DNA of 64,000 nt from Yuukianura sp. NJ FZ-2021 (Eukaryota). Both the position numbers and the translations under genes were made by a program. Location: contig CM102290.1 in NCBI GenBank assembly GCA_046563655.1, positions 5,208,001 through 5,272,000 on the forward strand, read 5' to 3'. Positions 8,901 through 53,400 of this stretch are shown in pieces (position 1 is the stretch's first letter; each line of letters begins with the position of its first letter). The notes beneath the pieces are model-generated. The model saw only the letters and a program-made list of their open reading frames with translations, had not been told where the DNA came from and ran no database searches.

Positions 8901-9949
8901 TCACTCTGCTCTTCCAGACAACCACATATGCTCAACCCTACTTTTTAAAATTCCAAATTTTGAATACTTTTTTTAAAAAGTTCACAAAAACCTTGCTAAA
9001 ATATCAATTTCCCATCAATTGGCAACCGTATTACTATCATTTGTGATGCAATGAGGGAGAAATAAGCTTCACTTTATAAATTTTGGCTTCTCCACTTTAT
9101 CATCTTTGTCCACTCAATTGATTTTCACTTACTTTCCCAACACTGATTTCCCAAATGTCATTTTTAGATTAACTTTCCACACGCCACAACTTTCCAATTT
9201 AACTTTACATGATCAGTTTTTGCCAAACTTCACTAGAAAATCGTTTTTTGTGTCTAAATCGAATAGAATATGAATATAGGCTATTGATCAAAAATTTGTC
9301 AGAAAAGTATGAAATTTTGAGCTAATTTTCCATTTTGCTGTGCATTGTGCTTTCACCATAAGAAACTCCACAAGTTCAGTAGAAGAAAGGGACGCAGTCG
9401 CCCACTTTCGTTGAAATTTTCGGATCATGGCAATTGACTGCCACGGTAAAAAGGCAGGGCACTTTCCCCGTCCTACACAGATCATTTCTAATGCTATACA
9501 TAGTCACAGTCACAATATACTAATCTTAAATTTTGATTTTCAAATCAAAATTTTGCAATTTCCAAGTTTCACCCACCCAGTTTCCAAATTTTCACTCCGA
9601 ATTTCGGTTTTTTTAATTCGTAAGTTCGGATTTTGTGATTCTATGGAATCATGGTGTGTGAAGCCACAAAAATTTTTTTGTTTCAGAATTAGCATGTGTT
9701 GTATCTTGTACGGAACTATGGTTTGGTAAGCAGTTGATCCACAGAAGATGTTAGACTACTAAAAAGCTCCAGTTGAGTGAGTGAAGTCGTCAGATCCAGA
9801 CACTCCCATTTTGGTCCAGAAGTGCCAAAACAATAAGTTAGAGTGATGCAAGCACAGTGACCTAACTTAGCCGTGACCTTTGACCTCTGACCTCCGACTT
9901 TTGGTCGTGACCTTTGACCTTTGTGCTCAGTTTGACAGCGGGAGTGAAA

Positions 9950-12900
9950 ATGCCGGACAAGAAGGACACAAAGTACGCTGAAGTGCCGACGGACGGCGGG
10001 GGCGGTGGTGGGGAAGCGGTGGGGCTCAAAGCCACCATGTCGCTTATGAACGGAATCACAGTGATCGTGGGGAGTATCATCGGAAGTGGGATTTTCGTGT
10101 CGCCCTCGGGCGTGTTAAAGCATACTGGAAGTCCTAACCTTGCTTTGATCGTGTGGACTGTGTCTGGAGTGTTTTCCATGATCGGCGCATACTGTTATGC
10201 TGAACTGGGTTGTATGATTGCCAAAACCGGGGCAGACTATGCCTATATCATGGTGACCTTTGGCCCCTTCCTGGCCTTCATTCGACTCTGGGTGGAGTGC
10301 ATGATTGTACGACCTTGCAGTCAGGCCATTGTGGCCCTCACGTTCTCCACTTACATCCTCAAGCCATTCTTCCCCACTTGCGACCCACCGGACGAGTCAA
10401 TTCGACTCCTCGCAGCAGTATGTATCTGTAAGTTCAAAATTAAAAAAAAAGAAAAAGGAGGATTTTAAAATATTTTTTTGGCATTTTAGTTTGGTTTAAC
10501 TTTTGAGTCAGTAGGAATTGTTAAAGTTAGGTTATTAGGCTAACCATGTTTTGCTAAAAGTTGATCTTACTCCAGTGTTCATTTGTGATGTTTTTTATAA
10601 GGTTTGGTTACAAAATTTCCGGTTTTGGAAAAAGTTGCATCATTTTTGAAACAGTTTTTAGTCAGCCGACTTTTTAGCAGTTGGCATCCATTCAAAAAAT
10701 TTTTGTTCTGTCATTTCCACTTCCTGTTAAAATTGTCTTGTTCTTTGTGTTTGTTTCCGAATTCGGATCCGAATTGAACCAGAAGCTACCGAGTGCCACA
10801 TGCTGTACATAACCACATGCTTTTTCATACAAACACAGTTGGTGCATTGTACAGACAGACATACCGGTTACATTGTTAGCACTATTATGCAAATTTTAGC
10901 ACAAACAGGTTTTCAAACCGGAATTGAATGAAATCCAATAGGTTTTGTTACATTTCCATTTTAAAGAGGAGAAGCATTTCCCTAGGACGCAAAATGTGCT
11001 GACTAAAACTTTGAGAATCTGTGGAAATGCGTTTAGGCAGGAAATGATTCCGAGGTTTAGACAGCCCTAAGCCAGTCGTGGGAAAAAGCAAAAATTGAAA
11101 TTCAGACATTTTTTGAATTCGAAGTGATGTAAAATTGAATGAATTTTGTTGAAGTGCTGAGAAATTTAATGTTGGTGAGAGGTCACTTGAGGTCATGATT
11201 GACGAGGTCACGCGGTACCTTCAATGACTTTGAGTCACTACAAACTCCATGCAACAAGACTTTCGACGCCCACTTGACCATTGAAAGGTGTCAAATTTTG
11301 GTGTCTGGATTCTGGACGTGAAATTTTTTTTTTCGTGGCGTCTAGTAACGGCGTGAGATCACTTTAATGATGTTGTTCGCAGTCCATTTATGTTTTATGA
11401 TGCGCATGAATTGCAACTCTGCAAATTCGCGAATTTGAACATCGGAAAGTGTTGATTATGCAATTTGCTTTTCCATTGCAGGTCTCCTTACATTTATCAA
11501 TTGTTGGAACGTTCGGTGGGCTACGTTTGTTCAGGACTCGTTCACTTACGCCAAGCTACTTGCCCTCATCATCATCATCGGAACGGGATTCTACCAACTA
11601 AGTCTAGGTAAGGTCAAAGGTCAAGGTCAATCCGAGGTCAAAGGTCAAAGGTCACAGCCAACACAAAGTCAGAGGTCAAAGTCACCGTTTTGAATAAGGA
11701 ACTAAAATGACGCCTTTTTGTCTAAACGTTTTTTGAATGCAAGAAAATAATTTTAAATTTTTAAAAAATTGAATGAAACAAATGTTAAAATATAAAAGTA
11801 TTATAAAAATAATGAAAGTATAAATAAGTTTTTTGATTTGTAGGAAAAGTGGAGCACTTTACATTTGATAACACTGAGCAAGACTTTACGATGATCATTT
11901 TGTCATTCTACTCTGGACTATTTGCGTACAACGGCTGGTAAGACTAACATCTTCATTCATTTGGAGAATTAAAAAAAAAGTGATGATCTGCACTTTTTTA
12001 AATTGTTAAAAAGCGTCTTCAGACGCTTCGTAATTTTCATGATGAAAGTGCTTGTCCAAATATTTGTGATTTATGTTGCAAAGTGATTACACAAAACCCA
12101 TCAGTTCTAATCTTTTATGTTTTTATGTAATCTGTGTCTTATCTTATGTTTTTATGTAACTTATGTTTTCAAGAACATCAAATTAATTATGCTTGAAATG
12201 TACAATAATAGCCTCAATCCAGTTCTACTGTATCCAATCAGTAGTACTCAATCCAGTACTTAAGTGATTAAACTTCTGGAAAAAACTTAGCTTTTTAGAA
12301 TGAAAATTGAAATTTTAAGAATTTTAAAATGTTTTTTGTTTTTGACTTAAAACAGGAATTACCTCAACTTCATCATTGAAGAATTGAAAGATCCTGTGAA
12401 GTAAGCATAACGTTCATAGGAAATTTCTAATTTTCTAATTTTTTTCAAAATTTAAACTTCAAAATTTTGATTTTCAGAAATCTTCCGCGAGCAATTGCCA
12501 TTTCATGTATTTTGGTCACCATTGTGTACGTCCTTACAAATGTCGCCTTCTTCACAACTCTCACTCCAGACGAAATTCTCAAATCAGAAGCCGTGGCTGT
12601 GGCAAGTTTTTCAAAAATTCGAAAAAAAAAATCAAAAAAGCAACAACAAGAAAAAAAACAAACAAAATGATTCCTAAATTTCCAGACTTTTGGAGACAGA
12701 ATGTACGGAATCATGTCCTGGACAATTCCCGTCTTCGTAGCAATGTATGATGCCATTCGAAAAATAAAATTTTGGTTTTCAAATTTTAAAATTTTGAAAA
12801 ATAGTTGTGTATTGCTTTTGTTTCCTCAGGTCTACTTTTGGTGGTGTGAATGGAATTCTGTTGACTTCGTCAAGGTAAAGAAGGATCCAATTTTCTTAAA

Positions 12901-15900
12901 CACATCACAAAATCTATTCTTCGCCATTTTTTTTGCTAATGGATTTTTGCAAGGCACATTTGCCAATTTCCTTGTCAGTGTTTTGCAACCTCTTTTGTTT
13001 TGCATTGTTTGAGACACATTGAGTGGCAGATCTCCTAAAAATAAATGGACTCCATAACACATAACACGCGCCCTAGTTCGTCTGCCGCTGGTGAATTTTT
13101 AGCATAATTGGACCGCCTCCGGCCAACTTGGCCCAACCACTAAAAACTCATTTCCGCATGGAACATGTCACTCAAGAATTAGCACACCAATACTCAGATA
13201 CGGCGGATTTGCGATGAAACACGCTGGATTTTAACCAGTTTCGGCCAGGCTGAAACCGGGTGGCAGAAATCCCAACTTTATGACCTTGAAATTATTGATG
13301 AATTTTGTATTTTCTAATGAAGGACGAATGGTCTGCGTCTGTGCCGTTTGAGAATGTGCTAATTACTGTGCAATAATTTTTATAATTTTCATAATTTTTA
13401 TAGTTTTTATAATTTTCATAATTTTTATAATTTTCATAATTTTTATAATTTTAATAATTTTTAGGTTGTTCTACGCCGGTGCAATGGAGGGACAAATGCC
13501 AGAAATCTTAACAATGATCCAAGTGTCCAAAAGTACCCCCGCCCCTGCAGTCCTCTTTGTAGTAAGCAAAACACAGTCACAATTTGCAAAAAAAAAAAAA
13601 TGAAAAACAAAAGTTTCAAAAGAAAAGGAGTAAAATTTCTGTGTTTAATTTTTGATTTTTTTTTATCTAGGGCCTACTGTCCCTGATTTACTTGACCTCT
13701 TCAAATATTGGACTTTTGATTAACTACGTTGGGTTTGCAACATGGGTAAGGTCATTAGCAGTATAAAACTTAATAATTGTATTAATATATTTAAATATAT
13801 TAATATATTTTATTATATTAATACTTTTTGTGCAGTTGAGTATTGGAGCAGCAGTTGTTTGCATCCCCGTTCTGCGTTACTACGAGCCCAACATGCCACG
13901 ACCTATCAAGGTCAACATCATTTTTCCCATCGTCTACATTATTGCCACTGCCGTCATCACAATCGTTCCCATGTTTGCTGACCCCGTCTCAACAGGTCAC
14001 TTTTTTGAATTTTGAAAAACAAATTTTGAAACTTTTTTGAAATTTTGAAATTTTGAATTTGGATTGCAGGCTACGGCACACTTGTAATTCTGAGTGGTAT
14101 TCCAGTGTACTTGATATTTATTGCATGGAAGGACAAGCCGAAAGCAGTTCGAAATGCGATAAGTAAGTTGAGTCAAACCACAAAAGTTCCAGTGACCTCG
14201 GTTAACCCAACGTCCAAGTTGACCTCAAAATTAAGTGTCACACTTTGATTTGAATGAATTTGAAGTTAGTAAGCAGAGGCATTATCAACACGGTCACCGC
14301 AAATCACCGTTTGCGGTGGATCTTATGCTTACGAAACGAAATTGCAGTCAGACGTGTCAAAATTTGATTAGATTTTTAAAAAAGTATTTGATTAGATTTT
14401 TAATTTTCTAAAATTCTAGGAAAAATTAGTCAATTTTTATTCTTCCACGAACTTTATACTTTTATGGTCAAAATCTTTAGAGTTTTGCTCTTCCTCGAAT
14501 TTGAATTGTTTTTAATTCCATAGAAAATTTGTTGAATTTTATTTTTCCCTTGATTTTTTCTAGTTTTTTTCTAATTTTGAAATTGAAAACTAGCTGATTT
14601 TGGTTATGAATTTTTTTGAAAGTGCTGTTTTTGTTTAACTTTTTGGTTTTGTTTTGAACAGGAAGTGCGACAGTAGCACTTCAACACCTTCTGCTTGTGA
14701 CCTCACCCACGTCCTCGTCTTGTCCAAAACACTCCTTCCGGGATTCGATCCTGTTGACCCCTGGATTCGAAACCATCAATCTCATGACCCCCAGTCGCCG
14801 TCTCTCCCTCTCTGCCTCCACCATGGACAGACTCCTCCTGCCCAAAGGGGGGCAGAGCTACACTGACTTCTCTTATGTGACCCCCTCCCCCCACCCACCC
14901 ACCTCCCCCACCTCCTGGACCATCCCCCAGGTCAAGGTCACTTCACCCCCCAACTACTCCAGTCCTGATTCACCACAGGAAGCCACACAACTACTCCAAC
15001 CCACGCGCTCTAGAAGTCGAACATTGTCCAGCTCCTCACGAACTCCGGATTCAGCTCGTCCTCGTCTCTACTCCATGTGAAAACAGGGGTCAATGACCTT
15101 TGACCTTCCCATTAACTGGGGTCAATGACCTTTGACCTTCCTATTAGCTGGATCAATGACCTTTGACCTTCCTCTTATCTAAACGTATGGGGTAAATGAC
15201 CTTTGACCCTCCGTCCTACAAATTCCCTCAAATTTCAAAAATTTTGGCGCGAGGTGTCAGAAAATGTCAAAATGGTTTGAATTTTTGTTTTGTAAATTAG
15301 CATGGGTGGAGGTCAACTTTACCAAAACAAAATTCTGAAATCTTTTTGTAAATGCAGGGTGCTAGCGATTTGCATGGATTGCATGAAATCAACATTTAAA
15401 AGTATTTTTAAAAAAAGTTTCCGCGTTTTTTTTTTAATTCTCAAAAGTTAAAGTTCTTAGTTCTCTTCACCTTCTCTTTAAAATCAAATTTGTTGTAGGC
15501 TTTGTGCTTATGATTTCGCTGAACTGAAAAACCCGCAATTTTTTAAATTTTATTTTGGCAATTTTGCAATTTTTGTTTTGTTTTGTGTCGTTTCAGATGC
15601 TGGAACCGGATTTCTACAAAAACTGTTTATAGTGTTGAGGCCAAACTAAAAAATTTTACGAGATGCTTTACAGAAGTTATGCTTGAGGGTATGGCACTGT
15701 CCGTTTTCTCAATTATATTTGCCAAATTTTTTTTTACAAAAATATCTTTCAAAAAAAGTTCATTTTTTAAAAAATTACAACCTTTTGCAAAACTTGAGCT
15801 TATTTTTGCCAACCAACGCTTGTTGGTCTCTAAATTTTTTATAAGGTCAAACGTTAACATTTTGACCTTGGCGGCATGCAACGCTAAACTAGAAGAAAAC

Positions 15901-16094
15901 AAGTTCAGTAGATCAGTTAGCCCGTACTAACCACGCGTGACCTTTAGAAAATCGAGGTCAATGACCTTTGACCTAACTTTAAAATTTTAACAAAAATTTT
16001 AACTGAACTTTTTGTTTGGTTTCCAGACGTGTCGACTATCTGGTTACAGAAGTTATTCATTGTGACGCCTCCTCAGCGACCAGCCAATGTGTAG
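9950..16094 (+). CDS. SLC7 L-type amino acid transporter light chain (LAT2/y+LAT-like; resembles Drosophila CG1607 as recalled), isoform using the distal last exon
   Basis: Exon 1 9950-10427 has [20 protein letters not shown] and GADYAYI. Further exons at ~11482, 11844 ([11 protein letters not shown]), 12356, 12478 (NLPRAIAIS), 12686, 12830 ([15 protein letters not shown]), 13465, 13671, 13836 and 14070. Last exon 16027-16094 gives [22 protein letters not shown]. Confidence 0.92.
14662..15080 (+). CDS. SLC7 alternative terminal exon A (long Ser/Pro/Thr-rich cytoplasmic tail)
   Basis: Acceptor ttttgaacag at 14661. Phase-1 join gives [16 protein letters not shown]...RPRLYSM*, open for ~139 codons with coding-like composition. 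Confidence 0.7.
15597..15649 (+). CDS. SLC7 alternative terminal exon B (short tail)
   Basis: Polypyrimidine tract and tttcag acceptor at 15596. Phase-1 join gives [17 protein letters not shown], sharing LQKLFIV with the distal exon. Confidence 0.7.
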
Positions 16095-17614
16095 AAAATG
16101 AACAACTTAAGTGAAGATGAAACTCAATCACTTTTAGTTAAGGTAGTCACTTTAGCCCTGAAAAATGTTAACCATAGTTAGTTAATTACAATTAGTTTCT
16201 TCAATCATACTTTAATTAACTAAACGTAAGGTAAAAAACTATGAAAAAATCAAAGAGTCTCACATTGCCCCGGTTTTGTTTAAATAGTCAATTTAATTGT
16301 TTTGTTTAATTAACTAACTTCAGTTAACTTCCAGTAATTGTCATTTACCAATTTTTTTCTGTTATGTTGTCCAACTAAAGTTTTTTGGTCTTGCATCATT
16401 ACTTGTTTATTGACATTTATATTTAGTTTATTCATTTAGTTAGTTGAATTAAATGATTTAATTGCAGTTAAAGTTAACTTCCTTTCCATGTTTTCTGTTA
16501 CGTGTTTACTCCCAAAAAAGAAGAATTTAGATGCCGTTTTTCATTTCGTTATTAAACTTTCAAATTGGAACAAGAAACTTGTGTTCGTTTTTTGTGTTCG
16601 TTCTCACTTCGCATGTTGTTTTATTTTCATTACTAACAATCCATTCACGCTGTATTTCAACTGCTAAAATTTAAAAAAGTTATGTTCAAATACATTTGAA
16701 CAGAATTTTTTTTAAAGAACGTTATCAATGTTTGAGGGCTTCCGTACTTGCTTCATCGAAACCAAAAAAAAAAGCGAGTAAGCTGCAAAAGTTAAATAAT
16801 TCAGATTCAGAGGCATTTCCAAAATTATCAGATTAGGGCTGCATTAAAATTAAGCAGTTTAATTAATTATTATATAAATATTATATACATATATTAATTA
16901 TTAATTAATTTAATTAAGAGTTGAGCCGCACAGTTAGTGTGTGTAGAGTCCATGGGCAGAAAACTGAAAAACGACAATAATCAAAACTTCAACTGAAAAA
17001 AAAAGTGATGATCTGGAGGATCTCAGGAAACAGGAAGATTTTTACAAAAAAAATCTTCGTTTTTCAAAAACCTTATTAAAAAGGTAGACAAAAACTTATT
17101 CTTAATAAAAAAAAAAGTAGTAATGTACTAGAAAAAATATGAATTTAAAAGAATAGTCATGAGTAGTTTAAGAACTTATCAAGAATAAAAAAAATAGAAA
17201 CAAAAATTTCTGTCTTGGTCGTTACTACTAAAAAGTCAACCAAGAAAAAAAATTAAAACGAATTAAAACTGAAGCGGAATTGTATTAGTTGAACGGCCAG
17301 TTTCTCTGTAATATGAAACACCAATTTTGAACAATTTTTCTTTTATTTAGAACAAGTTTTTTTGAATTTTAAAAAAAACGCAAGTCACTAGATGGCGCAG
17401 TGTGGAGCTCCAGAAGCAAGCGGAGAAAGTTAGAAAATGTGTTTTTTTACAAAAGAAAGAAAATGCAGAGGCAGCAGAATGATAGAGGGAGCTCCAAGTT
17501 CTTTGAAATGTTCTGCAAAATCAGTTTAAACCTAAAAATTTCGAAAAGTTTAAATTCAAAATTTCTCAAAGTTTCGAATGACTTTTGACTGTAAGATAAT
17601 ATTTTACCGTATTG

Positions 17615-26854: not shown

Positions 26855-29705
26855 CTAAACGAGAGATGCGAGTTGTGACGTGCGTGGGGCTGAGACGATG
26901 GTGGGTGCAGGGGTGGGGTTTGCAGATGAAGTGGTGGGGTGGGGCGGTGGGGCCGTTGTGAATTGGGTGTAGTAGGCCGGCATGGGTGGGAATGGATGAT
27001 TTCCAGTAGCTGACATTCCGGAGGCTGATTCTGGAAGGGAATGATGAGCCTCGTGGTACAGAATAGGAACGCGAACGAGGCGCTGAGCAGTGTGGGCCAT
27101 TGACGATTCAATTTCCGCCGCAACTTGGCGCTTCCACTTATTTCGCCGATTTTGAAACCAAATTTTTACCTGGAATTTAAAAAAAAAATCAAATTTTCTT
27201 TTTCAAAAAAAGCTAAAATCAAAATGCTCAGCCGCAAACATTCCTAAAGTTTCTTAGAATTTCAATTTCCTTGAATTTTCTAAAACTGAAGTCGTCAAAC
27301 TCGAAATCTCAAATAATTTGAGTCTAAATTTAAAAAAAATTCACATTTTCTTTTTAAAGAAAGCAAAATTTAAAGCTTCTCATAAGCAAACCTTTCTAAA
27401 GTTTCTTAAAATTTCAATTTCCCGGAATCTGCTGAAATTGAAATTGCGGAACTCGGAATCTCGAATTATTTGAGCCGCGAAACGTGAAATTTTGAATCGC
27501 GAAACGTGAAATTTAGACGCGAAAAATGCTGTACCTGTGTCTCTGTCAAGTGTAGCGATGCTGCTAATCCTGCTCTTTCTGAACTGGACAAGTATCGCTT
27601 GAGGTCAAAGGTCGATTCGAGCTGGAAAACTTGACTTCTGGAGAAAACAGTCCTTGTTTTCTTTTTCCTCTTGCTGCCATTGGGTCCTCCGTTGCTGCTG
27701 CCCGTGCTGCCGTTGAGCGAACTGTTGCTCGGCTTGTTGCCACCGCTTCCTGGCGACGTCAGTGACGACTTGTCGCCACCCAGATGACGATGGATGTGGT
27801 GGTTCTCGAGAGATCCAAGTTCTGGAGGGGTCGATGACCTCCGACCTCCTCGTCCAGACTCCTCCTTTGTCTCTGTGTCTGACTCAAATTCATCTTCATT
27901 CCCGTCTTCACTCTCAAGGTCATGACCTCCCGCCTTATTTTCAACTGAAATGTCAATCGAACTGTCGGCAGAATTCGGACGACCATCCGACGAGTAGCAG
28001 TCGCTCGCCAGGCCTTCAACGGGAGATCTCTGCTCCAGTTTCACTTTTAAAAATAACGAAAACTTATTTTTGAAATTGATTTTTCAGAACAGATCAAGGT
28101 GAGTTAGCAAGCAGATTGTTGATTTCTACAACAGGTTATTCAATATTTCGAATTTGTTAATTTTGTTAAATAATTTGCAAAACTGGCTTCGCCGTGCCTT
28201 TCTTTGGTAATGATATGCATGTATAATGTAATGGGAATGGGCTCAAAAATTGTTTCCACCAAGATTTTTGAAACTTCCGACTTATTGAACAACCTATTGT
28301 AGAGAATACAATTTGGTTCTCAAGGAACCTTGAAATAGACTTTTTGGAAAAGTTGTCAAGGTCATTGGTTTTTACCCAGAGGTCGATGGGTCCCTTGGTG
28401 AGCAGGGGGTGGTGACCTGGGGAAGGGCCCCCCCTGGGCCCTTAGCCCCAAAGGTTGCGTGAGAGATGACCAAGGGTACCAGCAGGCGGCGGCGGAGCGT
28501 TGAAAGTCCGTGCCACCGTAAAGGCTGAGCAGAGCCGCCGAATGTTGGTGGGAAAATGCAAGGGGAGAGACTAGGCCCAATCTGAAATTCAAAAACGAAA
28601 TTACACACTACATTTAACACCTAAAAGTAAAAGTGAGTTAATTGTTGAGCTGGTTAAGTTTGTAATTAAGTTAATGTTGTTCTAGAGGGAACCTGTTTTT
28701 AATTTGACATGACCTTTGTAATTTGGATCCAATTAGATAGGACCAAGAAACTGGAGAAGCTCAAAGAACGGAAAAGTTCCTAATTAGTTTACAGCAAAAG
28801 TCGACTTTCTCCAGCCAAAAGAAAAACAAGGTCCAAAAAACAGGTTTTAACTTTAACATGTTTGAACACATTTTTAAACTGTTTGAACAAGAACGAGAAC
28901 AAGAAATTTTGGTTTCAAAAAAGCAATTTTCCATGAAACACATGAAATTGGTTAAATTTTCTGAAAAAAATTTTTTTTTGACAAATTATATGAGTAAGAT
29001 TAAGGATTTGAAATTTTGGTGAAATTTCGATGAAGAAAGTTTCAGTTGTTGGAGAATTTTTTTTTGAGGGGAAAAAGAAACCAAAAAAGTTGAAAGTTGA
29101 AAAGCGGATTTGGAAGAGATTTTGAAAATGGTTTCCAGACAGTCGGAAGTGGGAAAGTTGAAATTTGAAGCGAAAAGGCTTCGTAGTGAGGAATTAGTCT
29201 GAGTCTCATCACTTCCTAAAACCCGCTTATTTTCAAAACCACAATAAATTTCATAATTTCAGCTCTTCAAAGTTTCAAAATTTTCAAAAACTTCAAAATT
29301 TGGAAAAGTCTAAAGTGCTTAACAACGAAACAAGAATCTAACTTTCGTATTCAACCGTACAGAAAAAACGTTGAGAATTTTTTTTTAACTTTGAATTTTA
29401 TAAATTTTTTTTTTGAAAAAATACCTTGCTAGAATGTTCGTGTCTTGTGAAATGAGTGGATCTGCTGGATCGAATTCCTTCGTAACTTTGTAACTGGGTG
29501 ACATTTGGTGGGGATGAAGTTGGTGGTGGAGATGATGATGGTGGGACTTGGACGAAGCCAAAATACTTGCAATTGAAAAGGGAGAAATTTTGGTGGGGCT
29601 GGACCCACTTCCAAGCTGCCCAGCTTTTCTATTCACTGGACTCGGACTCCTCGTCACGTGAACTGGGCTGGAAGAGGAGCTGGAGTCGGACATTTCACGC
29701 GGCAT
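26855..29705 (-). CDS. Hmx: Hmx (NK5/H6) homeobox transcription factor, 4 exons
   Basis: Exons 29705-29425 (eh1 motif FSIASIL), 28581-28376, 28043-27535 and 27169-26855. Homeodomain [60 protein letters not shown], followed by the Hmx-type [13 protein letters not shown] motif. Confidence 0.95.
28095..28332. mobile_element. CAAGG MITE copy 3 (fills most of Hmx intron 2)
   Basis: caagg... start and ...gttctcaaggaaccttg end. Core ccgtgcctt shared with copies 4 and 5. Flanks gaacagat/aaatagac. Confidence 0.7.
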
Positions 29706-40955: not shown

Positions 40956-43900
40956 TCACCAGTGCTCAAACTCCGAAGTACAGCCGAAGAGGGAGTACTG
41001 CGGGCCAGAGGGTGGGGCTGGAATGCTTGGTGGCTCAAACTTCGGCGCTCTCGGTGGCACTGGAACGCTGGAAGTCGGCTGGTGCACTGGAACGCTGGAA
41101 GTCGGCTGGTTGTGGTAGTTGTACATTGGAGGCCGCAGACCTCCGTCCAGCGCTGACGAGAATTCGGAACTCTTCGGAGCAGTCGTCAGATGACCGAATC
41201 CGTTCCCGACTTTGGGATGTTGTTGTTGCAGAGTTGAATTGTACTGGGAAGGTTGTTGCTGTAGGTTACCGGTAGTTGTTAGATTTGGACGTTGCGTAGA
41301 CTGCGACGGTGCTGTCCAGCATTTGTCTTTGAAGGCCATTTCTTTCTGAGCAGCTCCATTCTTGAGTTCCATAGCAAGCTGGAACGTCGTCATGCCAGGA
41401 TTGAATGACGTTGGATATGATACTTGGATGGAAGGTCCAGTTTTGAAGTAATTTGATGCATTAGTCACTTCTGGTTTCGGCGGTGGCAGACGATTGAAGT
41501 TTGCAAATGACGAAGTGCTCGATTGACCTTGACCTGTCATCATTGGATAAGAAGTGACAGGAACCTCTGGTGGACGTGTCGTTCTGGTGAAGGAATGAGT
41601 ATTTTGTGGCTTGACTGATGCTGGCATGGTTCCGTTTCCTTGGAAATCAAATTTTGGAGGTTGATCATTGGAGTCAAAGTCAAGCCGAAGAGAAGATGAA
41701 CTAGTACTTGTGAAACCGGGCGGAGTCTGCACATGAGGACGTCCATCAAAAGGTGTCGTACATGGCCGAGGACCTGCGCCTTGATCAAATGCCCAAGGAT
41801 TCTTCCAAAGTCCAGTACTTTGTCCAAGCGAAAAGAGAGTGTAGCTGCTATCAGCTGACGCCGAAGTCTCTCCAGATTCAAATCCATTGACTTGCGTACT
41901 GGTAGCTTCAACTTGACGTGGAACTGAGCTCCACATGTTGTACTCCATATCTGAAACCTTGGAAGTTGACGGCTTTTGGTGCTGCTCTGCTTTCAGTTGT
42001 GTACTTTTCTCCATAGCATGATTGATTGGCTGCTCGTTATGAAGATACATCGGGACAGAATACTCTTGAGATGATGCTGAGGGCGGAATATCTTTGGGAA
42101 TGACGACAACTTCCAAGTCTCGTGCAACTTTGTGGTGAATACCGGAAACAACGTCGGCCATCTTCACTGGATTCAGAGGCGTGATTTTGAGAAGTGGACG
42201 CGGAGAGTCAGAAAATGCTGGTGAAGGAGCATTTGGAAAGTGAGTAGTACTCGGAGAGGTACGCGGAAGATAAGAAACTTGTGGATCTCGTGTGATTTTT
42301 ACATAGTTGCGTGGCGGATTTCCGTCGGATGACTTCCTGGTACTGTCTCTACTGTCTCCGCGTTGATCTTTCTTCCCTTTGTATTTGTCTCCTTTACGAC
42401 CACTGTCGCTGCCCTTTCCTGAGCCAGAATTTCGACGTCGATCGGAATTTGAATTTGAGGAGGCAGACTTCAATCCAGCATCAGACCCGCGCTTTCCGTT
42501 CCCGTTTTTACTGTTTGTTGCATTTGGTGTTTGCTCGCGTGAAACAGGCCGCTCTTTGCTCCCATTTCCTTCTGTTTCATCACATTTGTTTGCCTTGCTG
42601 CGTTTTCGCTTCTCTTTATTAGACAACACCTATAATCAGAAAAAAAAAAATAGAACACTCAAAAAAAAATTAGAAAACTCAAAAAAACTTCGAAATTCGA
42701 AAAACTTCGAAACTATTGAGTGACACATCACTTACCGTTTCGAATTCCGAAACTCGTCGATTTCCGTAGAACAAGTAATCGTCGCTGTTATATTCCTCTT
42801 CATCCCGGTCGTCACAGTCAGGATTCATCACGATCATGTTGCTGTCAATGTTGTAGTGTCCAGCTCCAGGCGGCGGCATTGGGACACAATGATCTGTTCA
42901 ACATACAAAAAATTAAACTCAATCGTTAAGGAACATGAGTTAAGAGTAAAATTATGACTTACCTGGTTGTTGTCCAGTCACAGGTTGATTCACTTTGGTG
43001 ATTGTTATGCCAGGAGGTAGCTTGAGCGTTGACAAGTCAATCTCGGTAGAGTCAAGCTCAGAGAAAATCGAAAACGGTTTTCCCGTGCAGCGATTATTGC
43101 CAGACGAGTGACATGGAGAAGAATGAGGACCGTTTGGAATGATTGGTGTGAAGCAGGCAGCATCAGTACGTAATGTCGGAGTTGAAGGTACGGTGACGTT
43201 AGTACCGGAACCGAACCAATCGGAATCATGTTTTCTCAGTGTCGACTCCGTATGAAGACGGTCGTGGTCCTTATCCACAGCAGACTTGGTCACTTCGGTA
43301 AGAATGTCAGCGTTCTTGGACTTCTTTCCTTTACTTTTCCCTTGAGAAGACAAATCAGTTTTGGGCAGATCTTTCGAATCTGTGTAAACTAAAAAAAGAA
43401 AAAAAAACTATTGACTTGTCGGAGTGATTTTTATTAAGTACAATGCCCTTTACCTTGTCCGTTTACCAAAGTGTACAGCAAGTCTTCGTCACCAGTTTCG
43501 CTCTTAACGCTGATCGTCACAGTTGTATCCGGCGCCGTGGAATGTCTCCGGATCGTTACCATGTCAGACCTAGGTTTCGGTTCTTCTCGGACCGGACTGA
43601 ATTCCGGTTGGCGGGAAGTACCGGGTTGATCAGAGGTCGTCGGTTCGACAGTCTTACTTGCCTTCTTATTTTGTCGCTGTTTCCGCTTCTTCTCACGTTT
43701 CTTTCGAAGCAGTTCTTCATGAGCTTCCTCCTCGGCATCAATTCTCGCCTGTTCTATTACCCGTAGACGCTCCTCCTCTGCTCTTTGTGCTGCCTCTTCC
43801 TCCAGTCGCTGCAATTTCAAAAAATGGTTATGAAATTGTGACAATTGATTCATAAACGTTTTGGATAACCATAAAAACGTACCTTCTTCTCTCTTTGTCT

Positions 43901-47469: not shown

Positions 47470-50400
47470 TCAGAGCACCGTGGCGGTGTGGACCTTGTGT
47501 TGATCCGATTCGACCGTGACTGTGAGTTGATGCGAGTTCCGCACTCGACCGGCGCCTTGTTGTTGTTGAATCGGTGGAGACGGAAGTGGAACAGCCTCGG
47601 TCACTTCAAAATTGTCATGCTCAAAGGTCACACCGTGACTGTGACCTTGACCTTCAAAGGTCACGGCGTGACCTGGTCCACTGCCGTTTCGTTTGTTTCT
47701 GGCCCGCGGTCCAGCGACGACGGCGCGACGCTGTTGACATGCGTGGTTGTGGTTTGGTTCAGCTCCATTCCGACGCTGATTCCGGACATCATGGAAACGG
47801 TATGAACCTCGTATCTGGAACACAATTTTTTCAAAACACAACACAAAAAGTACAATTTTGAATTTCTTAAAACATTTTGAAAAACAATGTTGTAAACAAG
47901 AAAATAGTATTTTCTTCAACAGGTTAGGCAATAACTCGAACTTTTTAAATTTTAAGTGTTTAAAAAATTAGCAAAACTTGGTTCACCGTGCCTTCTTATA
48001 TGGCAATGATTTACATGCAATCAAATGGGATTGGAGGAAAAAAATATCTGGGGCGAGATTTTTCAAAAAAACAGGACTTCCTCCCGAACCTGTTAAAGAA
48101 TAACGATTTCGTTGCTTTATGAACCTTGGTGAAAATACTTACTTTACTTCTGTCATAATCCGAAACTTCGGAGCACGGAGATCCCGCTCTGCTTCGAAAA
48201 CAAAAGTTCATACAGCGCAGTCGTGCTCGAAATTCTCTTTGAAATTTGTCCTGTAAAAAAAATTAAAAGAAGTAATTTTCAAAATAACTTTTTTTAATCA
48301 TACATTACAAAAAAGAAGCCTATGAAAAGTAGGTGGGCAGATTTAGGAAATCAAAGCTGGAGAAAAGTCATACAAACTTTTCAATTATTTTTTTTTGAAA
48401 AGTTTTATTGATAAATTCGCCTGCTCACATTGAATTTCCGCAACAAAAGAAGTTTTTATTAGTAGAAGAAGCGTTTAGAAAAGCGGATTTCATTTTTCAT
48501 TTTTCCAGCATCGCTGCTGCTACCATGGAAATTTTCTTTTGAAGGTGATTATAACTCGTGTCACCCTTGGCAACACGCAGACTTATTGCTTTTGACCAAC
48601 GTTTTTGAATTGTGTCCAAAACTCCTACGCTTAATTCCCCTTTCTAACATTAAGGTATTAGGTTTTATGTTATTAAAGATGAACAAAAGTGTCCTTTGTT
48701 CTGTCTGGAAGCGGATTAACACGATAGCACTCACACAACAACGCTTTTGATCTCGGTAATTCGATCAACAAAGAGCTTTTAAAAAAATCATTTAGAAACG
48801 TGAAAGGAGTGAATCAGCTTGTGGTTGGTCAATCTTTTCAAACAATGTGACCTTTTGACCTCAAAACTCTCTTAAAAGATTGACTTTTGAGTACTTTTTG
48901 GAAATTTTTCAAATTGGTTTTACGCCTCACTTCACTTCCGTTTTTGAGAAACGAAGTTTTGTGAGGCCCCACTTTTTCGAGGAACTGAATTTTGGAAAAT
49001 CATTGTTCCAAAGGATAATGAAAGTTGGAGGATTTTGAAATGTTGGAAATTTTGAAATTCACATTGATTGAACTCGACAGCACCAAAGTAAGATTTAGTA
49101 CTGCGCTGGTTCAAACTTCCGTAAACTCTGCATTTGGTAACCACAGCGGGACATTTTGAACAGAAAATGATCATGAGAAGTCATAAAATGCGCCATCGCA
49201 CAATTTCTGCATCCATTTTTCGTGACTGTTTTTTGAAATGAGGCAAATTCTAGGTCACTTTTTTTAAATAAAAAAAAAGAGAGATTTTGAATTGAGCTGT
49301 TTTGAAAAAGCACGTTTCGGTCAAAGTGGATCTACAAATCGTTTCACAAAAGCAAATTATGCCGTTGAGACGAAGAAGCATCTATATCGTTGCCAAAGAA
49401 AAATTATTGTTTAATATTTTCAGACAAAACAAAAATACAGGATATGGGAATATATTGTCTGTCTGTCTGTCTGATTTTGGAAAAACGGAAGAGAAATGCA
49501 AAGTAATACACTTGAACTTCTTTATTTCGAACTAACTTAAGAGAGATTTGACACTATAAAAGGTTCCGATAATAGGAAGCATGCTGGGGACTTAAATACT
49601 GTAATAACTTAGAAATATCGTCTAGTTTCGCTTGGGCTAACGGCAAAGTGTTATTGTAGGCTTCACGGAGCCGGTTTGCATTGAAATTCCGGAGTCTCCC
49701 TCTACCCACAAGAGTGATTGTATGGCGCTCCCATACTCCCTAAATAAATTAAAAAATGTTAAATTTAAAAAGTACTAATGCATGCACATGCAAGTTTTTT
49801 AAATTACCATTCCGTGAGAAATTCTTGAAAAAATTTTATCCAGATTGTCGACATCGTAGTGAAACCAAAGGGATTTTGTCACCTGTAGCGTTCTTGGGCG
49901 TCGATACAAACTGCTTTGATACATAAAGTCCTTGAACATCGTTTGACGCATTTCTACATATTCAAAGGGATTTTCATTTCGGGAATTCTCCACCACCAAC
50001 TTGATGTCGGAAGGAACCGACACTGTTGACCTTCGAAGCACTTTTTCCATGAGACCAAAGTCCCTGTCACAATGGTTGTAGGAGTGACCCGTGACGAAAA
50101 GTTTCTGATTGACCTTGGTAAAAAAGTTAGCGCGAACTAGCAAAGTCAGTGCTGTCAACAGCATGAAATTATTGTTTTGTCCAGTACACCGGTCATTCCA
50201 AATCACGAGCTCCCTCTGTTCCCCTTGCCGTAAAACTCGAAATCGCGTGGTACAGTAGTTCCAAAGGCAACTCGCGACTTCATTTGACCCCCTGTGCGCA
50301 ATGGATTCGTTCCAAACGTGCATTGTTCCAGAATTGTCCGATGAGTTATGGAGTCCAAAGTTGTAATTTGACAGCTTCCTTAAGTAGAACGCGCTACTAT

Positions 50401-53400
50401 TCTTGACATTAGGTGTAAAAATTACTTGCTGAAGATCCCCTGTCAATACAATGTATGTTGGATCTGTTCTGGCTTTTTCGCAATCCAATTTATACGCATC
50501 GTATGCTGCTTGAGCTAAAAATTAATTTAAAAAAAAAATCATTCAGAAAAACGGAGATTTGTTAAAAAAAAATTGTTATACCTTCTGCGTGATGATCGCT
50601 TTGAAGTTGGGAAGTCTCGTTCGGTAAGGTCAGTGCACTCCATGTCAAAGTTGAGTTTAACTTGTCACAAAGATCGCAAGTATCCAACTTTGGCGATCCG
50701 AATGTCAAACCACATTGTTTGAGCATTCCTCTGTAGAAATGTTCCTCAACTTCTAGCGGAACGGCTTGTGCTCGACATTTTTCTATGTACAAGTTGTACA
50801 TTATTCCCACGTTCAGCGATGGGTCGAGATATTGGCGAGTGGGATCACCATTTGCTCTAGAGTAATGACTTTGGTATGTTGGAAACATTTTGATATGATC
50901 AAGCACAGCGTCTTTTTTAGCAGCGGTTATTTTCTGAGGGCGATTTTCATGCCTACCTCGTCCATCCTTGAGGCATAGGTCACCAGAAATCATTTTCATT
51001 GTAACAGTCCGCAATATCTTTAAACCAATTTTAAAATTGAGAAATGTTGAGATAATAAAATGCTTGCTAAATAATTACCTGTTTTTTCAACTGGAAGAGA
51101 TGCATGAAGCCAATCTTACACATTGCAAGTTTAACTCCATCTTGAAACACGCCATAGTTATACACATGTTCTTTTTTTGGCGGATTTTGCGGAACTTTCC
51201 TCTCCTTTGGGGTGGTCACCTCAATGCATCTTGCGAGAAATGCGTATTTTTTATCAGTTGAGTCCAATGAGATCCAATACTGTTTACAAAGTTCATGTTT
51301 TGTCGCCAGTGGAAGAAGACAACCCTGTTTCTGGCATGGACCACAGATTTTAGGATTCTGTGACGGAAGAATTCCCGGGTGGAAAATACCGCTTCTGGAC
51401 CTATAAGGATTTCCGTTAGCCCGATTCCGTTTTGCTAATTCGTCCTTGTGTTCCAATGGGTTTAACTTCCGTTTGCGTTGGAAGTTAGCCCGGTTAATGT
51501 CGGCCTCCGTCAGCACTTTCACTTTTTTTAAATCCATGATTCGAAAACGAAAAACGAAACTTTTAGCCAACAACGCATTTGAAACAAATTTGCCCCTTGA
51601 TACTTTGAAAACACCGTTTCTACTCGTAAACAACATCATTTAGCGAAATAATTCGCCTTAGAAACGATATAGCCGTTTCTTCGTCTCAACGGCACAATCA
51701 AAAAATGCGTTGCTAAAAACTTTTTGAAAAACACTTTTTACTGAATGAATTTTGCACTTGAAATGTTGAAATTTGTAAATCTGTTTCAAAAAAAGGATTT
51801 TGTTACGTTGCCTGTCGCTTCCGGACTTTTGCTTATGTGCTAAATCTTCCAGAACCAGAACGCGCCTAAGGCGCGTGTGCAAAGCGCATTGTCCAGAATT
51901 GCCATTTCCTGTGAATATTTACAGGAAATGACAAAAGCCGCTCGTGTTTTAGCTGCTTCCTGTTGCTTTCACTCTCAAATCTGCTGGTTTTGGGTAACTG
52001 AATTACAGTTTCAAAGTTCAAACTGTCACTGCAATCTCTTTCTCCTCACTTATTCATCACCGACTCAAACAAAGCAATATTGAACTCCCGTTTTTCAAAT
52101 TTCCAGGTTTCAAAATTTTGAACTTTCATAAAAACAAACGTCATTTCATTCAAAGTCAACAAAGAGAGTGGAGGCGTTCATGGAATTTCTCAAAATCTAT
52201 AAACTTTTGTTCAAAACAAGAAAAAGCTTTCACACGCTTTCGCTCCAAGCTTCAAGCCCACAAACATTGGTAAAGTTTCACACTTTTTAAAGTTTTTCAA
52301 ACGTAAAATTTTTTTAAAGTTTTTTTTTTGAAAATTGTCTCACCGAGTAGATTGAGTAGACAAATGGATTGTACGTAGAACTTGACATTGCAAGCCAGTG
52401 AAAGCAAAACCAAATGATGTTGATGTACTGGTAACTATGTTTCAAAGGAAAAATTTAATGAATTAGACACTTCTAATATTTGAAACTACTTTTAGTCTTA
52501 GTTTTTAGCACTTTTAGTATACTGTACTCTTAGTTTATAGTACTTTTAGTTTAGTATTGCGGTAAAAGGCGCTGGATTTATGAAATTGAATTAATAATGG
52601 AAGCACTTTCTCTGGAGTCAAACCAAAATCCGCGCCTTAGTCCAAAGAGGTGCAATGCGCGCTATAAGCGCGAAAATGACTCTGTGGTCTGCTCTTGTTC
52701 CAATTAAATTCCTGAAACGGAGTCCACGAACTTAACCATAAGCTCCACACATACATTTACTCGCTCCATTTCCATTTTGACCTTAAGACTCTAAATTGCA
52801 GCCTCCAAGTCAAAAACATAACAATCCAAAAGAACTAATGTTAATCTCAGCCCCTAATGTTAAACGACTAAAAAAAGACTAAAGATTTTAGTCCTGTGGC
52901 TAAAAAAAGAGTTTGTTAATTGATTTAGTACTTGTTTATGGCGGGTATGAAGGACTGGAGAAAGTTGTAGCTTTGCAAAGGCAACCAACACAGAGCGAAG
53001 ATCAGGACCTAGAAGTGACGTTTCGAAAATAGGCAAAGAAAAGTTTCAAATTTAGTTTCAGTTTTTAAAAAAGTTTCAGAAGCTTCAAAAATTTTGAAAA
53101 GTGAGAAAAGTTAGGTTTCAACTTTTTAAAAAAATGGGTTTTCGAAAAATGTTCCTCTTACCACAACTGTCAGCATCTTGATCACCTGAAAATTAAAAAA
53201 CAAAAATTATTAAAAAGTCAAACAAAACAAAACATAACCTAAAAATTGAACTTTTAAACTTTGCAGTCACTTGTTTCTGTGACCTTTGACCTTATTTTGG
53301 TCACATTAGCCATCTTTTGCTGCATATAACAAACAAAAGATGATGATGACAATGATGATGATGACGATGATGATGATGATGCACATTCCAAGATGAGGCT

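Follow-up and report, generated by a model that had tools for sequence, protein, structure and literature searches.

What decides how a protein ends when its gene holds three possible C-terminal exons behind a single splice donor? This question is raised by an amino-acid transporter gene of the SLC7 family in Yuukianura sp. NJ FZ-2021. The gene lies on a stretch of 64,000 nucleotides (GenBank assembly GCA_046563655.1, contig CM102290.1, positions 5,208,001 to 5,272,000 of the forward strand), which we call the window and from whose first letter all positions are counted. We consider it probable that this is the 3' end of a springtail-like SLC7 light-chain gene in which the exon behind transmembrane helix 12 (TM12) exists in three ancient tandem copies, and that the copies would act by a rule of 'first stop wins'. 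The preliminary description of this DNA had proposed a tandem duplication of the exon after TM12 that gives alternative C-termini, and the three homologous units described below agree with that proposal. Judged by its relatives, the tail switch is old, and all three isoform types are already annotated for Folsomia candida, so it is not novel. The arrangement appears to be widespread in crustaceans and insects, real but ordinary.

The window is AT-rich, with a GC content of 32-45% and short introns. It carries one SLC7 gene on the + strand, with its ATG at 9950, 11 shared exons and 14162 as the last shared base. This shared coding part (9950..14162, +), a SLC7 light chain of the LAT/y+LAT type, was delimited by tblastn with two relatives (P0008 and P0010, both collinear with 9950-14162 across all 11 shared exons), by a splice search and by Pfam. 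Shared exons 1-6 on the + strand are 9950-10427, 11482-11607, 11844-11937, 12356-12400, 12478-12601 (with a GC donor) and 12686-12744, and shared exons 7-11 are 12830-12874, 13465-13561, 13671-13745, 13836-13995 and 14070-14162. Our splice search script accepted GT donors only, and one conserved valine was lost by it. A donor GTG/GCAAGT at 12601/12602 (the slash marks the exon end here and below) restores EAVAVTFGD, the same residues as in P0008; a GT donor 3 bases upstream would remove the valine that is conserved in relatives. Because the GC donor brings back this residue, the intron starting at 12601/12602 is probably of the GC-AG type.

Several comparisons bear on the identity of the gene. 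Exon 1 of the window matched PF13520 (AA_permease_2) with E 1.2e-15, and P0008 matched the same family with E 1.6e-52. A protein search with exon 1 gave 930 proteins at E <= 0.001 among 1344 candidates. Among the best 120 of these 930, which were inspected, the named relatives are nearly all arthropod, plus a nematode group (Trichinella, Haemonchus), and the closest match is the transcript product P0008, with 87% identity. By tblastn, exon 1 is 84% identical to Folsomia candida, and it is 80% identical to Orchesella cincta. Likeness to the LAT1, LAT2 and y+LAT chains was measured through the relative P0008, not through the spliced window protein. P0008 matched human LAT2 (E 3.7e-153), y+LAT2 (2.8e-147) and LAT1 (1.1e-146); the proteins matched after LAT2 also include y+LAT1, xCT, Asc-1 and b0,+AT. 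A cysteine column of the window aligns with the cysteine of LAT2 ..LFPTCFPPES.., in the loop after TM3, which we take to be the residue that is disulfide-bonded to the heavy chain. These similarities identify the gene product as a heteromeric amino-acid transporter light chain of the LAT/y+LAT type (APC superfamily), arthropod and most like those of springtails.

The penultimate exon encodes the end of TM12 and closes with the phase-1 donor TAA/GTAAGT at 14162/14163 (exon and donor 14070..14168, +). Behind this donor, AG acceptors ending at 14661, 15596 and 16026, each after a T-rich tract, open exons that start at 14662, 15597 and 16027. All three exons continue the frame with the carried base, and each contains the motif T..LQ(K/H)L..V. 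A phase-1 donor near 14162 and three AG acceptors that continue the frame with one motif had been put forward in the preliminary description, and they proved exact, to the base at the acceptors, with the motif unique to these exons in six frames. Tail exon A (14662..15080, +) has 139 codons with the stop at 15078-15080, and its candidate exon ends are 15088, 15120 and 15191. Tail exon B (15597..15688, +) is coding over 15597-15649, has its stop at 15647-15649 and probably ends as a cassette at 15688 (AGG/GTATGG). Tail exon C (16027..16094, +) is terminal; its stop at 16092-16094 is followed by the 3' untranslated region (UTR), its tail ends ..PANV, and the first ATTAAA sites after it are at 16448 and 16551. 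The post-TM12 motif T..LQK...V, followed by Pro, is complete in B and C and has His for Lys in A. The predicted proteins have about 604, 487 and 482 residues for the A, C and B forms. In a DNA alignment of the A, B and C units identity is scattered only, and the duplications are therefore old. As a tail switch would have it, these are tandem homologous exons that share one acceptor phase (phase 1).

The closest parallel is found in Folsomia candida. The RefSeq isoforms X1, X2 and X3 of its 'Y+L amino acid transporter 2' have 595, 486 and 481 residues (taken from a 90% cluster). They are identical for 464 residues and then continue with a 131-residue tail (X1), with TTTTQNLQKLLIVLAPERPAKV (X2) or with NGTTQLLQKLLIVLRPS (X3). 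The split falls at the residue homologous to the window donor, and the lengths of 595/481/486 compare with about 604/482/487 for A, B and C. The tails are also of the same kinds, namely a long Ser/Pro-rich one with a helix motif that lacks the Lys, one ending ..LRPS and one ending ..APERPAKV. Tail B matches P0008 (..GFLQKLLIVLRPS), Folsomia X3 and a genomic metagenome contig, L061. Tail C matches Folsomia X2 (..LQKLLIVLAPERPAKV), the second unit of the P0008 transcript L001 (..APEKPANV) and L061 (..APSKPSQV). L061, together with L013, is the only genomic relative that holds the 3' end of the gene. In exon 1 it shares 80% identity with the window, which makes it roughly as remote as Folsomia, and after its phase-1 donor it has the same order of units: an A-like one (..CLTHSMQLILVVVGP.., with a long Ser/Pro-rich frame), then B (..LQKLLIVLRPS and stop), then C (..APSKPSQV and stop).

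More distant relatives show the same break. In nine of nine same-species isoform sets (Folsomia, Tigriopus, Macrobrachium, Penaeus japonicus, Daphnia carinata, D. magna, Thrips palmi, Artemia and one further transcriptome) the isoforms diverge at the homologous residue, 7 residues after a conserved K-P, and have their first 464-480 residues in common. The motif stands near the C-terminus in 123 of 145 proteins of relatives. The tails of these 123, sorted by regular expressions, were C-like in 34, B-like (RP..) in 27, other in 61 and long in 1 (Folsomia X1), a tail counting as C-like if its final residue is hydrophobic and follows Pro or a basic residue. Thus, the expectation that relatives would conserve the exons was borne out for the B-type and C-type tails, which are kept and used (nine isoform sets and complementary DNA (cDNA)-like contigs). 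The long tail had been called unusual for the family, and so it is, with more than 60 residues after the motif in only 1 of the 123, the Folsomia long isoform. The proposal that the end of C is a PDZ ligand found little support and fits loosely at best. Class I PDZ ligands follow the rule [ST]-x-hydrophobic-COOH, whereas A-N-V has no Ser or Thr at position -2, and conservation extends only to the hydrophobic final residue, which in the 34 C-like tails follows Pro or a basic residue.

Are A and B alternative last exons, as the preliminary description had it, or cassettes that carry their own stops? When metagenome contigs were scanned with P0008, 70 loci came up, 10 of them full-length and intron-free (cDNA-like). 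Four of these 10 (L001, L004, L006, L007) contain two tail units in one transcript, the second beginning 0-22 nucleotides (nt) past the stop of the first. In L001 the B unit is 60 nt long and ends 7 nt past its own stop, after which the transcript reads ..SVTDFLQKVLVVIAPEKPANV and stop; if the B unit were skipped, the upstream exon would continue in frame into C. Each of the remaining six contigs has a single unit, and one of them, L002, is plainly C-type and ends ..GADKPADV. In the window there is no AATAAA or ATTAAA at 15081-15596 or 15650-16026, canonical signals alone having been tested, and in L061 there is none between A and B or between B and C. As far as canonical polyadenylation (poly(A)) signals go, the alternative exons do not each have a poly(A) site of their own, as strict alternative last exons would. 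After the stop of B, the donor AGG/GTATGG at 15688, 39 nt downstream, is the sole candidate that scores above 2. Its score is 6.1, and the gene's own donors score 4.1-11.1 on the same crude matrix. Donor-like sites also follow the stop of A by 8, 40 and 111 nt (15088, 15120 and 15191), inside a tandem repeat with a 32-bp unit.

Because transcripts of relatives run B into C and no AATAAA or ATTAAA follows B, we read B as most likely a cassette with its own stop that is spliced on to the terminal exon C. The claim of alternative last exons is thereby replaced by that of an internal, stop-containing cassette, on the model of the relatives' transcripts. Some points weigh against our reading. Most of the relatives' isoforms are models produced automatically by RefSeq, the cassette structure is evidenced in transcripts of other species rather than of the window organism, the donor matrix was built from the gene's own 11 donors only, and arthropod poly(A) signals need not be canonical; to these must be added the blank searches with tail A that are reported below.

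Instead, A and B could each be cleaved and polyadenylated at a site of their own, as true alternative last exons are. Such sites could use non-canonical signals, and A in particular may be terminal. Tandem exon duplications are a known source of alternative isoforms (abstract of PMC9741552), and excerpts of PMC9013439 name the duplicated terminal exons of Drosophila pip and PGRP-LC. There, as here, the product is settled by one exon out of a tandem set of homologous exons. In the window, by contrast, the upstream units look like internal cassettes whose ends lie a few bases past their own stops, and mutual exclusion would be unneeded. Against true last exons stand the lack of AATAAA and ATTAAA after A or B in both the window and L061, the direct splicing of a B-type unit to a C-type unit in four relatives' transcripts and the donor-like sites 8 nt past the A stop and 39 nt past the B stop. 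We regard the last-exon explanation as unlikely, although it deserves some weight, and prefer the cassette structure.

Exon A raises a question of its own, namely whether it makes protein at all. It encodes a variant of the helix motif (His for Lys) and a 126-residue tail rich in Ser, Pro, Thr and Arg; Ser, Thr and Pro make up 46% of tail A (S 28, P 18 and T 17 of 138). The tail had been described as Ser/Pro/Arg-rich, about 130 residues long and furnished with kinase-site-like sequences. The sites RRLSLS and RSRSRTLS are indeed present, as are PPNY and YTDF, but none of these was seen in the Folsomia or L061 tails and we do not build on them. The length needs correction to 139 codons including the motif. 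In position and order, A agrees with the Folsomia X1 long tail and the A-like exon of L061. Two blocks, [DE]S[FI]..TP and SSPD[ES], are common to the three and occur in the same order: in MAFFT alignments RDSILLTPG of A (14739..14765, +) stands with NDSFIMTPG of Folsomia X1 and SESFVMTPN of L061, and SSPDS of A (14958..14972, +) with SSPDE of both. The long tails of L061 and Folsomia are clearly homologous to each other (score 70, reached by 0 of 3000 shuffles). Tail A scores 50 against L061 (75 of 3000 shuffles) and 49 against a 75-residue insert in an Orchesella protein (31 of 3000; BLASTP E 0.021). This insert, at residues about 446-525 of the Orchesella cincta protein P0009, lies between the penultimate exon and a C-type end and is probably an A-like exon that was mis-joined to C. 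From these comparisons we take A to be orthologous to the springtail long-tail exon and to evolve fast. Its counterparts appear to be confined to springtail-like relatives, and it has diverged fast from them.

A might nevertheless be a decaying or unused pseudo-exon, or its counterparts in relatives might be gene-model artefacts, so that only B and C would make protein. None of the three sequence searches with tail A found a match: an exhaustive HMMER search of 1.84 billion representatives gave 0 matches to its body, and neither a word-based search of longer proteins nor a scan of metagenome contigs matched tail A. When its first 13 residues are set aside, the similarity of tail A to each of the three other long tails falls short of significance (419-1713 of 3000 shuffles score as high). 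The Folsomia long tail has diverged from A almost past recognition, and the tail body does not reach significance against X1 (score 38, reached by 344 of 3000 shuffles). The helix Lys, which is lost in A, is near-invariant: it is present in 95 of 100 distinct tails, the rest having 3 Arg, 1 Gln and 1 Ile (the Ile in the Folsomia long tail). Outside this count of 100, L061 has Leu in its A-like exon and the Orchesella insert has His, as window A does. The Orchesella model that joins an A-like piece into C looks, moreover, like a prediction artefact.

A decaying exon is hard to reconcile with other features of A. Its frame stays open for 139 codons, as did only 634 of 20000 composition-matched shuffles (3%). 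Its GC content is 57% amid flanks of 30-34%, and its codon score is +11.3 in frame vs -12.3 and -10.1 out of frame. Folsomia (GenBank and RefSeq records) and L061 likewise have a long exon at this position, with tails that are mutually homologous, and both short blocks recur there in unchanged order. On balance a pseudo-exon seems improbable to us, if not negligibly so, and A is probably functional. The third and last alternative, that chance or low complexity in intronic and intergenic DNA produced the three motifs, has only the shortness of B and C in its favour and is refuted, since all 3 occurrences of the core LQ[KH]L[LF][LI]V in six frames of the 64 kb (and 3 of the 6 matches of a much looser pattern) are the tail exons, on one strand, in one phase and behind acceptors, and B and C agree residue for residue with the protein ends of relatives.

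Based on these results, we propose a model for how the three exons would be used, on the assumption that the window organism splices like its relatives. The copied exon would encode the cytoplasmic C-terminal helix and a V-x-P segment, with A and B carrying their own stops. A splice from 14162 to 16027 would give the C tail (..PANV). If cassette B (15597 to about 15688) were included ahead of C, the protein would have the short ..LRPN tail and C would become 3' UTR. If A were used (from 14662), the product would be a protein of roughly 604 residues with a helix without Lys and a disordered 126-residue tail rich in Ser, Pro, Thr and Arg; for this step A, too, would have a donor after it.

The segment that is swapped suggests what the isoforms may do. 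The swapped exon aligns with human LAT2 ..LTLVSQKMCVVVYPE and with the last 44 residues of b0,+AT, and the tail motif aligns with LAT2 LTLVSQKMCVVVYP. It thus corresponds to the C-terminal helix and trafficking-motif segment of b0,+AT. The difference is that in the window this segment has three genomic copies that would be chosen by splicing. Literature searches, with supplements excluded, found no paper on a SLC7 tail switch, and we know of no such switch in mammals. Excerpts of PMC9110406 describe the C-terminal helix of b0,+AT as lying parallel to the membrane and touching the N-terminal helix of rBAT, followed by a Val-Pro-Pro motif that is linked to trafficking from the endoplasmic reticulum (ER) to the Golgi; Pro482Leu causes cystinuria (PMC9110406 and bioRxiv 10.1101/577551, both in excerpt). 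Because the swapped piece aligns with the b0,+AT segment that touches rBAT and with the Val-Pro-Pro motif, the isoforms may differ in heavy-chain contact, ER-to-Golgi export or surface residence.

Other members of the family and other arthropods were compared as well. Minidiscs, JhI-21 and CG1607 of Drosophila belong to the same light-chain family. Drosophila mnd was considered as an example of a tail switch and ruled out, its transcripts encoding one single protein according to the excerpts of PMC11352668. In copepods and a mite (P0002, P0003, P0128, P0130, P0132, P0133) exon duplication seems to go further in the orthologous gene, with two alternatives for the first coding exon and the exon ..SLxYLxSSNI..INYxGFATW present in two versions; the gene models P0002 and P0003 read both exon copies in series. 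No second copy of either exon was found in the window.

The DNA near A and C carries repeats. Four copies of the 18-mer GGTCAATGACCTTTGACC, in a tandem unit of 32 bp, occupy 15088..15208 (+), beginning 8 nt past the stop of A, and copies 1, 2 and 4 of this array hold possible 5' splice sites (G/GTCAAT, G/GTAAAT). A fifth copy of the 18-mer (15956..15973, +) lies 54 nt upstream of the first base of exon C (16027). The five copies in the window, all on the + strand, compare with 0.01 expected. The repeat patterns are absent from the metagenome contigs L011, L012, L013, L016 and L061. A near-palindrome in the 18-mer, GGTCAATGACC, resembles a nuclear-receptor site. A hormone-response reading of these repeats was set aside, as the 64 kb contain 17 copies of the adjoining 12-mer TGACCTTTGACC or its complement GGTCAAAGGTCA, 5 of them at the array. 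The 12-mer often forms short runs with a 7-base period, with further sites at 9874-9919, 11612-11654, 37563, 37841, 47263, 53280, 55083, 55179 and 59768; copies in the opposite orientation also stand just upstream of the transporter ATG and in the second intron. It looks like a genome-wide short repeat.

A bolder version of our model would bring these elements together. The switch would be hierarchical, the first stop winning, with cassettes that end <50 nt past their stops and mRNA that thereby escapes decay. Exon A would be a springtail-specific regulated trafficking module, in which the Lys was lost and [DE]S[FI]..TP and SSPD[ES] were kept, and the GGTCAATGACC repeats after A and before C would choose the tail as splice-site or regulator elements. 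As a whole we consider this version speculative and quite unlikely.

Three further features of the window, all on the - strand, were observed away from the transporter gene. The list of open reading frames includes a frame with a homeodomain-like stretch at 27466-28083 (-) and, at 49799-51639 (-), three adjoining intronless frames of 170-240 residues that may be a mobile-element gene; both are known from this list only. The longest open frame of the window, at 40956-42629 (-), has 557 residues and is Ser/Pro/Thr-rich and of low complexity.

In sum, the piece that is swapped would not be an arbitrary tail. It corresponds to the segment that lies against the heavy chain in solved mammalian complexes and that carries a motif linked to ER-to-Golgi transport. 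For annotation, the Orchesella protein suggests how easily gene models go wrong where a stop-carrying cassette precedes a terminal exon. Last, the persistence of such a splice switch in copepods, shrimps, springtails and thrips suggests that isoform choice is a means by which arthropods tune the assembly or surface delivery of the transporter, and the three natural variants could serve to test this idea.

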